Source of the DNA: Bacillales bacterium
GTDB taxonomy: Bacteria; Bacillota_I; Bacilli_A; RF39; UBA660
Assembly (NCBI GenBank): GCA_016290885.1
Contig: JAEEVN010000002.1
Location: 2,489 to 66,488, forward strand
Direction: 5' to 3'
DNA: 64,000 nt
Shown here: piece by piece, positions 2,162 to 3,544 of the stretch
How positions within the stretch are numbered: position 1 is the first letter of the stretch
Layout: every line of letters starts with the position of its first letter
Translations under genes and position numbers: made by a program
The notes under the pieces: generated by a model
The model's input: only the letters and a program-made list of their open reading frames with translations
Databases searched by the model: none
Told to the model about the DNA's origin: nothing

Positions 2162-3118
2162 TTATTTATTAATTTTTATTATAAATTCATAAAGGCTATC
2201 AAATTCATAGGAATCATATGTAGATATATATCCTTCTCTTTTTAATTCTTCGATAAAATTCTTTACTTTTTCTTGTAATTTTTCTTTCTTTTCATCATCT
2301 TTTTCATCATCAAGAAGTAATGTTTCTTCATAATCTATTTCTGGATATTTCTTGTCCTCTATTTCTGGATATTGTTTATCCTCAATAGATGGTGCCTTTT
2401 CTGTTTGTATTTCATTCATTTCGTTAAATAATGTTTCGAAATCTATTATAGTTTCTTTTCTAGAACCCCCTAATGTCTTACCATATGATCTTACTGGTTC
2501 TAATTCTTCAGTTTGTTTAAGACTATCTATTAATCTATCTGTATCTCTAACATTAAGTCTTTCTCTTATAATAGTTCTCAATACTTCTACTTGATCTTCT
2601 GGATTATCTATTCTTAATAAACTTCTAGCATGTCTTTCACTTATTTCATTATTAAGTAAAGCGTCTTGAACTTCATTAGTTAGATTTAATAATCTTAATT
2701 TATTAGAAATAGCTCCTTGAGTTTTACCCATTCTTGCTGCTAATTCTTCTTGTGTTAAATAGCCTCTATCTAATAATTTCTTATAAGATTTAGCTTCTTC
2801 TAGAGCAGATAAATTCTTTCTTTGAATATTTTCTACTATAGCTACTTCTGCTGATTCATTATCATTTAAATCTATAACTACTGCTGGTACTTTTGTAAGT
2901 CCTGCGATAAAAGATGCTTTATATCTTCTTTCACCAGCAATTATTTCATATTTATTTCCAACTTTTCTTAATACTAATGGTTGAATAATGCCATGTTGTC
3001 TAATAGATTTAGCAAGTCCATTTAGTTCATCTTCATCAAACGATAATCTTGGTTGAAATCTATTAGGTATTATATCTTCTAATGAAACTTCTATTATTTC
3101 TTTTTCCATATTGTTCAT
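2162..3118 (-). CDS. noc: ParB/Noc-family CTP-dependent DNA-binding protein, Noc-like (nucleoid occlusion protein-like)
   Basis: 318 aa. ParB boxes PNRFQPR and IIAGERRYKAS. HTH GKTQGAISNKLRLL ... ISERHARSLL and C-terminal end ...EFDSLYEFIIKINK resemble B. subtilis Noc (recalled from memory) rather than Spo0J (GKSRPHIANHLRLL ... SAGHGRTLL). Lies near rsmG as noc does in Bacillus. An in-frame TGA at 3130-3128 prevents any N-terminal extension. Confidence 0.8.
   Translation of the reverse strand: MNNMEKEIIEVSLEDIIPNRFQPRLSFDEDELNGLAKSIRQHGIIQPLVLRKVGNKYEIIAGERRYKASFIAGLTKVPAVVIDLNDNESAEVAIVENIQRKNLSALEEAKSYKKLLDRGYLTQEELAARMGKTQGAISNKLRLLNLTNEVQDALLNNEISERHARSLLRIDNPEDQVEVLRTIIRERLNVRDTDRLIDSLKQTEELEPVRSYGKTLGGSRKETIIDFETLFNEMNEIQTEKAPSIEDKQYPEIEDKKYPEIDYEETLLLDDEKDDEKKEKLQEKVKNFIEELKREGYISTYDSYEFDSLYEFIIKINK
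2335..2382 (-). repeat. 24-bp tandem duplication inside the noc-like gene, encoding (I)EDKQYPE/(I)EDKKYPE
   Basis: Units 2335-2358 and 2359-2382 are identical at 21 of 24 positions. They lie in the linker between the DNA-binding and C-terminal domains. Confidence 0.8.
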
Positions 3119-3164
3119 AATATCAACTCACTTCTTATTCTTTTACTATATATAATAATATAAT

Positions 3165-3192
3165 AAAAAATCCATTTTTTCAATGGATTTTT
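3165..3192 (-). terminator. Intrinsic (bidirectional-looking) terminator after the 116-aa ORF
   Basis: Stem TCCATT/AATGGA flanked by A6 and T5 runs. Confidence 0.65.
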
Positions 3193-3193
3193 A

Positions 3194-3544
3194 TTAAAAT
3201 GTTTTCTTTTTATTATCTGGTTCTTGTAAAAAATCAGATCTAGTTTCTTCAATAAATTGTTTTGTAGTTTTAGTATCAGATTCTATATCTTTACTTATTT
3301 CAGCTACAGTATCCAGATCTAATTTACCTAGTTTTTGAATTTTTAACTCTAATAATACTGATTTTAATGCTTCTCTATATAGAGAATTAGTTTCTTCGTC
3401 TTCATCTATTGATGCAAGTCTTCTAGTGATTTCTTGATATGAATGATGTTTTAATTCAAATCTTAAAACTTCTTTTATTATTGCGGTTTTTATTTCATCT
3501 TTTGCTTTTAAATCTAATATGTTTTGTAAGGCTTTCTTTTCCAT
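3194..3544 (-). CDS. Hypothetical protein (116 aa, charged, predicted helical)
   Basis: ORF between rsmG and the noc-like gene, followed by its own hairpin terminator. No recognisable motif. Confidence 0.55.
   Translation of the reverse strand: MEKKALQNILDLKAKDEIKTAIIKEVLRFELKHHSYQEITRRLASIDEDEETNSLYREALKSVLLELKIQKLGKLDLDTVAEISKDIESDTKTTKQFIEETRSDFLQEPDNKKKTF

Follow-up and report, generated by a model that had tools for sequence, protein, structure and literature searches.

A Noc-like ParB-family protein without a membrane-targeting helix, and NBS sites beside parS, in the origin region of a low-GC Bacillales bacterium

Introduction

In textbooks Noc stands for a duplicate of ParB with two gained properties, a new DNA specificity and a membrane binding that is switched by CTP, and the published mechanism requires both. 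The bases of NBS are recognised by glutamine at position 173 and arginine at 201 (Caulobacter ParB numbering, used for positions 173 to 201 throughout) provided that there is a lysine at 179 or 184, R173 is invariant among parS-specific variants, and dual-specificity variants, which combine elements of both types, exist in mutant libraries (PMC7383237). As for the membrane, Adams et al. found a membrane-targeting helix in every Noc homologue that they examined, and a foreign amphipathic helix can substitute for the native one in B. subtilis Noc, so the tether is modular; NocNdelta10 of B. subtilis was retained on the nucleoid, lost its peripheral foci and failed in nucleoid occlusion (PMC4331003).

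Here we describe a ParB-family gene next to rsmG in a window of 64 kb (the whole stretch of DNA that was analysed) from a Bacillales bacterium whose very AT-rich genome has a GC content of ~25%, the protein of which appears to lie on the Noc side of the family and has no N-terminal helix of this kind. The initial annotation of this DNA called a Noc without an anchor unusual, which holds when the protein is set against the characterised Noc proteins but not within its own, very large family from uncultured gut Bacilli of low GC, where it is the rule. A second bin of the same organism is GCA_016287855.1.

The noc-like gene and its locus

The noc-like gene (2162..3118, minus strand, with its stop codon at 2162-2164) is an ORF that encodes a protein of 318 aa with the Pfam domains ParB_N and HTH_ParB. 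On the minus strand it is preceded by rsmG (3553..4257) and an ORF of 116 aa (3194..3544) and followed by a DUF1934 gene (1738..2112) and argS (43..1734), all in the same orientation, an order that was already given in the initial annotation and on which the ORF map, Pfam and NCBIfam agree, rsmG, the DUF1934 gene and argS being named by the latter two. The noc-like gene is downstream of rsmG (gidB) and proximal to the origin, and in 57 of the 74 relatives in which both genes were located fewer than 200 nt separate the two.

In the relatives the slot between rsmG and the noc-like gene is mostly empty and, where occupied, holds mutually unrelated genes. The 116-aa ORF, which had been put forward as a candidate partner, was found in only two species when its co-occurrence was checked across relatives, this one and one neighbouring species (31% identity); confined to these two, the ORF is not a conserved partner, and the candidate was rejected. 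On the 3' side of this ORF an AT-rich hairpin followed by a T-run (3167..3190, minus strand) was read by eye as AAATCCATT-GAAAAA-AATGGATTT and then TTTT. A terminator scan passed over it for its small number of G-C pairs, and from its sequence it may be a terminator between the rsmG-orf116 transcript and the noc-like gene. Upstream of the noc-like gene there is also a promoter-like site, TTGAAA-17 nt-TATTAT (3155..3183, minus strand), with 10 of 12 matches, which is put forward as a consensus match only.

The noc-like gene is the single ParB-family gene of the window and is not accompanied there by soj or spo0J, both of which points had been made from the first reading of the sequence. In the 64 kb no second ParB was found, as tblastn with the protein matched only itself, the motif KGGxGK[ST] is absent from all six frames of the window, and phmmer with the Soj and ParB of a relative against all ORFs of the window that reach 40 aa returned nothing besides the noc-like gene. 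Neither soj nor parB was found in ~3 kb beyond the right end of the window and 0.6 kb beyond its left end, and look-ups with exact proteins (ArgS, the right-end gene and YbaB) led to short contigs of the same species only, with no soj or parB on them. The closest relatives have no soj or parB within 10 kb of the noc-like gene, and all matches in a search seeded with the ParB of a relative were near-identical proteins of a single, very abundant species of the human gut, with none for the clade. In ten relatives and in an abundant gut species soj and parB are ~8 kb from the noc-like gene, and the parB of these encodes LGKGL, PNPYQPR, R173 and G201. The ParA-binding peptide LG[KR]GL, which is MEQKKKALGKGLEELF in the ParB of the relatives, is absent from the protein described here. 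Of the two explanations originally offered for the lack of partners, a canonical ParABS system elsewhere in the genome is the more likely.

Domains and family

All parts of the protein are encoded on the minus strand. The N-terminal CTPase-fold domain (residues 7-99; 2822..3100; PF02195) contains the motifs PNRFQPR, GERRYK and ENIQR and is followed by the helix-turn-helix DNA-binding domain (residues 101-201; 2516..2818; PF17762 and alignment), an acidic, poorly structured linker (residues 204-273; 2300..2509) with a short helix near IDFETLFNEM and YPEIEDK repeats, and a C-terminal domain of the Noc type (residues 274-318; 2165..2299), assigned in an end-to-end match to the Noc model. Membership of the superfamily is clear from TIGR00180 (168.7 bits, cutoff 58), PF02195 (110) and PF17762 (114), with the GERR and ENxQR motifs visible. 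K67 is the sole replaced arginine of GERRxR and aligns with Noc R91, the one substitution that left Noc foci not abolished (PMC4331003). The motifs show a ParB-type CTPase domain that is intact at the level of its sequence.

An AlphaFold2 model of moderate confidence (mean pLDDT 65), used for the domain layout only, has a helix in the linker at 227-239 and a pLDDT below 50 at residues 210-226 and 234-273, and builds the C-terminal domain as one helix and two strands. The C-terminal domain is conserved across relatives and presumably serves dimerisation. The linker is always present among relatives, at lengths of ~70 to ~350 residues, and in the clade it has short invariant stretches, namely IDFxxLF, the YPxIEDK repeats and EETLLLDEE. 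A linker motif, [FY]F[PN]xLEDE / YPxIEDK, occurs in ~10-15% of family members as against 0.1% of shuffled linkers; it is confined to a minority of the family, so no explanation has been built on it.

Within the ParB family, sequence comparisons support a place for the protein on the Noc branch, as Noc-like and not ParB-like. Its top matches among solved structures are Noc (7ng0/7nfu, 199 bits), with Spo0J at 162-171 bits, and the second ParB of the relatives shows the opposite, with 208 bits for Spo0J and 166 for Noc. NCBIfam nucleoid_noc (TIGR04285) is the top family both for the full protein (273.4 bits) and with the linker removed (278.8 bits), and without its linker the protein covers positions 1-255 of the 255 in the Noc model, as against only 2-208 for the ParB of the lineage itself. 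The score of 273 is nonetheless below the curated TIGR04285 cutoff of 315; against the same model the lineage's own ParB scores 231 bits and B. subtilis Noc, queried with what we take to be its sequence, 373 bits. In a neighbour-joining tree all 100 of 100 replicates recover the family with the short N-terminus as monophyletic, and it groups with Noc apart from the ParBs in 83 of 100 bootstraps, canonical Noc being represented by two sequences only. In sister lineages the gene is a paralogue that coexists with the parB of a canonical soj-parB pair. The Noc-likeness first proposed from the peptides PNRFQPR, GKTQGAISNKLRLL, ISERHARSL and EFDSLYEFIIKINK, each of which was found in the protein, has held, supported over a ParB-like identity by the reciprocal structure matches, NCBIfam, the tree and the coexisting soj-parB pairs.

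DNA specificity and binding sites

By alignment Q134, K140, N145 and R162 correspond to Q173, K179, N184 and R201. The Noc-type residues that had been proposed are thus confirmed at 173, 179 and 201, with asparagine at 184, a single lysine being sufficient for the NBS type (PMC7383237), and where the parS type has R173 and a small residue at 201 this protein has Q and R. The DNA-binding domain carries the set of residues that published work links to recognition of NBS and not of parS. Of the 140 nearest cluster representatives with these positions readable, 135 have the Q-K-x-R pattern.

Perfect parS sites had been reported from the start. Three of them (TGTTTCACGTGAAACA) are found in the window against 0.05 expected by chance, the first just 3' of gyrA (21058..21073), the second upstream of the SRP RNA gene (21838..21853) and the third just 3' of tadA (22402..22417), the first and third forming extended palindromes with a T-run. 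Two perfect 16-bp NBS sites (TATTTCCCGGGAAATA; 0.10 expected) had been overlooked. Both are intergenic, NBS 1 (21810..21825) after an ORF of 222 aa and 12 nt from the second parS, and NBS 2 (22450..22465) between tadA and dnaX, 32 nt past the third parS. The three parS and two NBS are interleaved within 1.4 kb between gyrA and dnaX, and on the expected numbers a chance origin of the sites was rejected. The 222-aa ORF inside the cluster was considered as a cryptic ParB and rejected, having no Pfam match and no similarity to ParB.

Array-bearing relatives were found within ~10 useful low-GC syntenic loci among the matches listed in a DnaX-anchored metagenome scan, which were for the most part from distant taxa; the array-bearing loci end short of the gene with the short N-terminus, array and gene being seen in separate loci, and tetranucleotide correlations between these loci and the ParB-bearing species are 0.93-0.99 throughout and non-discriminating. 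At least eight syntenic relatives have parS and/or NBS in the same region, at least seven of them with sites in the gyrA-tadA spacer. One relative (L087) has a 119-bp tandem repeat in 4.6 copies, every unit of which holds a single parS and a single NBS, and another (L125) has seven parS with an NBS-parS pair at either end of the array; in L125 NBS are also scattered across 12 kb, and a wider, Noc-like distribution is possible. Furthermore, ten perfect NBS are found in the noc-containing loci of relatives. Within the origin-proximal DNA to which the sampling of sites was confined, perfect NBS in the window and the relatives' loci are clustered with parS, unlike in B. subtilis.

The N-terminus

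The protein has 17 residues ahead of PNRFQPR, and upstream of its start there are in-frame stops at 4, 9 and 10 codons (3128..3148, minus strand; TGA 3130-3128, TAA 3145-3143 and TAG 3148-3146). The initial annotation had the length and the blocking TGA right, and with TAA and TAG beyond it read-through of TGA would add at most 8 residues (KNKKWVDI), and otherwise the extension is at most 3. The net charge of the N-terminus is -2 to -4, no helix is predicted in it by AlphaFold2, an amphipathic membrane-targeting helix at about residues 1-15 was not found, and a search of the protein outside its folded domains found no basic amphipathic segment. The 17 acidic residues, the upstream stops and the alignment all agree with the earlier statement that the N-terminal membrane-targeting segment is absent. 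The identical short gene is found in five independent assemblies; a short N-terminus is present in 143 of 147 representatives among the 150 nearest 50%-identity clusters and in 80 of 80 related species, where it has 14-22 residues before PNRFQPR and where every species has upstream stops of its own.

Proposed function

We favour, at a probability of roughly 60%, the reading that the protein belongs to the Noc branch, is natively anchor-less and, as an NBS-specific CTP clamp that has no membrane tether of its own, acts alongside ParB at a composite array near the origin. It would load at NBS as a CTP-dependent sliding clamp, would be unable to reach the membrane by itself, and would share with ParB a composite 'centromere' near the origin, ~9 kb from dnaA, where its role would be to organise or mark the origin region rather than to tether DNA to the membrane genome-wide. 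A parS-specific ParB, probably with Soj, would be expected elsewhere in the genome. Since NBS are concentrated beside parS in the conserved gyrA-dnaX array, a role alongside ParB is the most likely one. Points against this reading are the asparagine at 184, the score below the Noc cutoff, the lack of parA and parB in the sampled sequence, array-bearing loci that end short of the gene, the scattered NBS of L125 and a sampling confined to origin-proximal DNA. A broader proposal, to which we give somewhat less than even odds, is that throughout a large clade of uncultured gut Bacilli with low GC Noc never carries a membrane anchor, that NBS are built into the parS array, in places as a tandem repeat whose units pair one of each, and that Noc and ParB together form a two-clamp composite centromere.

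It is also conceivable, if unlikely, that nucleoid occlusion has been kept and that the link to the membrane or to division is made by a partner bound to the linker or its motif, or by the C-terminal domain. The tether is modular in B. subtilis (PMC4331003), and the linker is never missing, varies in length and keeps the invariant stretches given above, with a motif that recurs in a minority of relatives far above its frequency in shuffled linkers. That motif is, however, in only ~10-15% of members, there is no basic amphipathic segment outside the folded domains, no partner gene is conserved in the neighbourhood, the rsmG-noc slot being usually empty, and NBS are at one locus rather than scattered.

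Much less probable is the other explanation originally offered, that a single protein is the reader of NBS and parS alike, here taken as a centromere protein of dual specificity in a genome that has lost ParAB. No other gene of the ParB family is found in the 64 kb around the origin, the closest relatives have no soj or parB within 10 kb, and NBS and parS, which are physically paired here, differ at two positions per half-site, with dual variants known from libraries (PMC7383237). Yet both switching residues are of the Noc type (Q173 and R201), and in the mutational data the parS-specific variants always have R173 (PMC7383237). Sister lineages with a Q-K-x-R protein retain a separate R173/G201 ParB and Soj, the protein has no LG[KR]GL peptide for binding ParA, and for two distinct perfect palindromes, both of them kept, the simplest explanation is two readers.

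That the short N-terminus is an artefact of annotation or assembly and the true one longer and amphipathic (by way of a start that is non-canonical or further upstream, of a frameshift or of TGA translated as tryptophan) might be thought of in a genome this AT-rich, as some related wall-less lineages decode TGA as tryptophan, but it is effectively refuted by the TAA and TAG 5-6 codons beyond the TGA, which limit any hidden extension to KNKKWVDI, by long genes that are all intact under table 11 with TGA ending 3 of 43 long ORFs, by the identical gene in five assemblies and the separate stops of 80 species, and by an upstream spacer that holds the hairpin and the promoter-like site.

On the favoured reading of an anchor-less clamp, a large family in nature has retained Noc's specificity together with its sites, lacks the anchor and sets its sites beside parS, and offers a natural experiment on the order in which the two properties were gained and on the action of an NBS-loaded clamp off the membrane. 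If the composite centromere is real, the new specificity of Noc would have arisen for a role at the origin, be it in organising it, in segregating it or in the timing of replication, and the membrane-tethered occlusion of Bacillus would be a later addition or one of two uses. The parS/NBS array is compact and easily cloned, as in the 119-bp repeat of L087, and suits testing of clamp interaction on DNA. Furthermore, such genes go by no other name than 'ParB family partition protein' in the gut metagenome-assembled genomes, thousands in number, that contain them, and their reading would be corrected.

Comparison with known systems

The closest described proteins are the Noc (YyaA) of Bacillus subtilis and Geobacillus thermoleovorans (PDB 7OL9, 7NFU, 7NG0 and 6Y93), with which the protein shares the order of domains, the PNRFQPR box, Q173, K179 and R201, the position downstream of rsmG, the absence of the ParA-binding peptide and 47-51% identity across the two N-terminal domains. 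It differs from them in that the first ~20-22 residues are gone, that is the 10-residue membrane-targeting helix together with the next helix and loop, in having N at 184 where Noc almost always has K, in the change of the third R of GERRxR to K, and in its acidic linker of 70 residues (up to ~350 in relatives), which in Noc is short and basic. The NBS are identical to the 16-bp consensus of B. subtilis, where the sites are scattered, whereas here they are clustered with parS near the origin.

The natural start is about where the NocNdelta26deltaCTD crystal construct (7NG0) begins, indeed 7NG0 is the top solved-structure match and is aligned from chain residue 3. Whilst NocNdelta10 and NocNdelta26deltaCTD are laboratory constructs, a large family here conserves the truncated form as its wild type, which must therefore serve a function independent of the helix.

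Chromosomal ParB/Spo0J (PDB 6SDK, 1VZ0 and 4UMK) has the same fold, the same CTP-binding motifs and the same TIGR00180 family (169 bits), and the NBS sites of the protein described here adjoin parS, but identity is 42-49%, the C-terminal domain of ParB/Spo0J is of another type, it has the LG[KR]GL peptide that is lacking here, and the R and G at its positions 173 and 201 are Q and R in this protein. KorB, VirB and BisD likewise have a ParB fold and no ParA partner and load at specific sites (PMC12704722), and KorB was a weak match among solved structures; these are, however, regulators of plasmids and mobile elements with distant sequences, whereas the protein described here is chromosomal, origin-proximal and a close relative of Noc.

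Gene order around the origin

The window has a G+C content of ~25% and a GC skew that changes sign near 12 kb, and the genes around this switch are those of a typical Firmicutes origin region. Leftward from it, on the minus strand, lie rpmH, rnpA, yidC, jag, mnmE, gpsA, mnmG and rsmG, and rightward dnaA, dnaN, comK, recF, gyrB and gyrA. Pfam and NCBIfam assign rsmG (3553..4257, -), the ParB-family ORF of 318 aa (2162..3118, -) and, after it, a DUF1934 gene and then argS; an ORF of 116 aa (3194..3544, -) sits between the first two. The usual mnmE-mnmG-rsmG run is broken at 6166-7907, where gpsA (-) and a divergently oriented short-chain dehydrogenase gene (+), the latter between gpsA and mnmG, are inserted between mnmE and mnmG.

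Some neighbouring genes are recorded in their own right. A 129-aa ORF between jag and mnmE (9260-9649, -) has no Pfam match; the ORF found there in the nearest related species (locus L006) is 43% identical to it. A ComK-family gene (14977-15429, +; Pfam PF06338, E = 1e-44) adjoins the origin between dnaN and recF, a position kept in at least eight syntenic relatives at 29-51% identity; a competence regulator at the origin of small-genome gut Bacilli is unexpected. Directly upstream of the rpsL-rpsG-fusA operon a gene at 62654-63337 (+) encodes a 227-aa metallo-beta-lactamase-fold protein with a precomputed Pfam match to the anti-Pycsar Apyc1 family (PF23023).

A Noc-branch paralogue

The initial annotation held the ParB-family protein to be Noc-like rather than ParB-like, and structure matches, NCBIfam, specificity residues, phylogeny and the separate ParB of relatives all bear this out. 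By sequence its best matches among solved structures are Noc (7NG0 and 7NFU at 199 bits, B. subtilis 7OL9 at 186), with Spo0J/ParB structures at 162-171 bits. Among NCBIfam families nucleoid_noc scores highest, with 273 bits, under the curated cutoff of 315; without its linker the protein covers all 255 positions of the model, C-terminal domain included, and scores only 279 bits. That model begins at B. subtilis residue 29 and therefore does not cover the membrane anchor.

Alignment places Q173, K179, N184 and R201 (Caulobacter ParB numbering) at the four positions shown by Jalal et al. to encode the choice between parS, the ParB site, and NBS, the 16-bp Noc-binding site (PMC7383237). In that work adenine 1 of NBS is read by Q173 and cytosine 6 by R201, a single lysine at 179 or 184 suffices to permit this reading, and R173 is always retained in parS-specific variants (PMC7383237). 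The CTP-binding motifs are retained, with one arginine of GERRxR replaced (K67); its counterpart is Noc R91, and of the substitutions tested only the one at R91 still allowed Noc foci (PMC4331003). In a neighbour-joining tree of the two N-terminal domains, with canonical Noc represented by only two sequences, the window protein and its relatives without the N-terminal membrane-targeting segment are monophyletic in 100/100 replicates and group with canonical Noc against all ParBs, the lineage's own included, in 83/100. The window protein is 47-51% identical to Noc and 42-43% to the lineage's ParB.

A scan of one genome per species gave 80 loci from uncultured gut bins labelled Bacilli, Tenericutes, Erysipelotrichaceae, Clostridium sp. 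CAG:433, CAG:302 and CAG:321, which presumably resemble the GTDB orders RF39 and RFN20. The noc-like gene is present in all 80, always with PNRFQPR and ISERHAR, and rsmG lies upstream in all 74 where it could be located. Ten more distant relatives also have soj and a second parB, ~8 kb off and divergent from rpmH-rnpA, and one very abundant human-gut species shows the same combination on contigs of >1 Mb. This second protein has the classic ParB features MEQKKKALGKGLEELF, PNPYQPR, GKSRSHITNT and ISMGHAR. Among solved structures it scores highest with B. subtilis Spo0J (208 bits; Noc reaches 166), the mirror of the window protein. Given the tree, the identities and this coexisting ParB, the window gene is placed on the Noc side, and it is well supported that its product is a ParB paralogue of the Noc branch that is predicted to be NBS-specific, lacks an N-terminal anchor and has a C-terminal domain of the Noc type. 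As a separate observation, the abundant human-gut relative has a SpoIIR-family gene (Pfam PF09551; L173:304-828, also L174-L182) immediately 3' of its noc-like gene, a hint that a lineage usually called reduced-genome may have sporulation genes.

A composite array of parS and NBS

Perfect parS sites had been reported in the window and three are indeed present, at 21058, 21838 and 22402; overlooked were two perfect 16-bp NBS (TATTTCCCGGGAAATA) at 21810 and 22450, with no imperfect copies, against a chance expectation of 0.1 for up to two mismatches. Both site types fall within one 1.4-kb stretch, all five intergenic, among gyrA, a 222-aa ORF, the SRP RNA gene (21893-21978), tadA and dnaX, with 12 nt from NBS 1 to parS 2 and 32 nt from NBS 2 to parS 3. 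Most of the five lie in extended palindromes followed by T-runs. parS 1 (21052-21079) and parS 3 (22397-22422) are the stems of terminator-like hairpins directly 3' of gyrA and tadA, both NBS lie inside A-run/T-run palindromes, and the sites may double as transcription terminators. The 222-aa ORF (21138-21806, +), between parS 1 and NBS 1, has no Pfam match and looks like an insertion into the array, since at its position syntenic relatives have no matching ORF, only non-coding array DNA.

DnaX-anchored metagenome loci yielded at least eight low-GC contigs with the window gene order (dnaA, dnaN, comK, recF, gyrB, gyrA, spacer, tadA, dnaX), and sites occur in the gyrA-tadA spacer in seven of the eight syntenic contigs among the matches listed. 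Their layouts differ: L087 has a 119-bp tandem repeat in 4.6 copies with one parS and one NBS per unit; in L125 seven parS follow at spacings of 140-210 bp in DNA that is not repetitive, the first and the last each preceded by an NBS at a distance of 15 bp; the spacer of L105 contains seven parS and one NBS; L095 has two parS with a single NBS; the sets of L090 and L136 are mixed; and in L086 five parS surround tadA and two others fall within dnaX (11083 and 11179). One-mismatch sites mostly agree with the degenerate B. subtilis consensus TGTTNCACGTGAAACA, and the extended NBS consensus is aatTATTTCCCGGGAAATAatt. In four lineages perfect or near-perfect NBS also fall within the dnaX reading frame (L090:11044, L098:11060, L136:11045, L105:11134); such internal sites lie ~1.0-1.2 kb into the gene, with none in the window's dnaX, and the retention of a binding site in coding sequence suggests that selection acts on the DNA itself. 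Across 80 species, the 1.44 Mb surrounding the noc-like gene contains zero parS and only ten NBS. Within the origin-proximal DNA sampled, the gyrA-tadA spacer is far denser in NBS than the rest; L125 has five further NBS scattered across the next 12 kb. Judged from sequence, the parS and NBS sites form a conserved composite array.

One reader or two

The statement that the window has no ParA/Soj and no second ParB held up over the 64 kb, where tblastn of the window protein returned only itself, a six-frame search gave no deviant Walker A motif and phmmer with a relative's real Soj and real ParB matched only the noc-like gene. Two different palindromes perfectly conserved, the published residue rules and the separate ParB of sister lineages point to two readers, and parB, and probably soj, are therefore expected elsewhere in this genome, with a probability of roughly 85%. 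That a single protein reads both site types, the other explanation offered initially, is consistent with the lone ParB-family gene of the window and would be hard to reconcile with the same three lines of evidence. The earlier interpretation is supported in part, the observation beneath it in full.

As a conserved partner the 116-aa ORF is ruled out by its narrow occurrence (same-species contigs and one neighbouring species at 31% identity), by a mostly empty slot (rsmG to the noc-like gene is <200 nt in 57/74 relatives with both located) and by unrelated inserts elsewhere, namely a P-loop protein, a methyltransferase, a toxin-antitoxin-like pair and a 309-321-aa protein without family assignment. 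It has no Pfam or NCBIfam match. Because the inserts of other relatives are unrelated, the slot appears to be an insertion hotspot; the ORF is an insertion into this variable slot. In one relative (L031:9305-9910) the slot holds two ~100-aa ORFs resembling a toxin-antitoxin pair.

The window protein probably loads at NBS as a CTP clamp, would not bind membrane by itself and would act alongside ParB on the gyrA-dnaX array.

A Noc family without the membrane anchor

Every peptide quoted in the initial annotation is found in the protein, as are the 17 residues ahead of PNRFQPR and the in-frame TGA at 3130-3128, beyond which TAA and TAG follow five and six codons further upstream. Reading TGA as tryptophan would add at most 8 residues (KNKKWVDI); TGA ends 3 of the 43 long ORFs of the window, and the standard bacterial code leaves every long gene uninterrupted. 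The protein opens with acidic residues (net charge -2 to -4), and outside the folded domains it has no stretch that is both basic and amphipathic. An AlphaFold2 model (mean pLDDT 65) has residues 1-8 unstructured, then a ParB-like core, a linker (204-273) that is disordered apart from one short helix, and a C-terminal helix with two strands.

The absence of the anchor is confirmed, its supposed rarity is not. The noc-like start lies 14-22 residues ahead of PNRFQPR in 80/80 species, with an upstream in-frame stop limiting extension to at most ~25 codons in most. In an exhaustive HMMER search covering 1.84 billion cluster representatives, almost all of the 150 best matches (250-434 bits) align starting at their own residue 1-5, the box is preceded by 14-21 residues in 143/147, and Q-K-N-R occupies the four positions in 110 of the 140 that were readable; lengths range from 227 to 791 residues owing to the variable linker. 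Linkers also carry short recurrent motifs, YPxIEDK repeats and IDFxxLF in this clade (window 2300-2509) and [FY]F[PN]xLEDE in others (relatives L054, L073, L075, L082, L085), with a frequency of ~10-15% among family members and of 0.1% in shuffled linkers; these motifs may be docking peptides.

No description of an anchor-less Noc family or of mixed parS/NBS arrays was found in the literature, within incomplete coverage. The Noc N-terminus is extremely conserved, with an amphipathic helix predicted in every homologue examined by Adams et al., and NocNdelta10 still binds the nucleoid and has lost function (PMC4331003). Ahead of its main domain Noc has a helix, a second helix and an 8-residue loop (Jalal et al., PMC8429893), and the window protein starts at about the point where the Ndelta26 construct of Noc made by Jalal et al. 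begins. The window protein belongs to a large natural family of anchor-less Noc proteins, with sites interleaved with parS near the origin.
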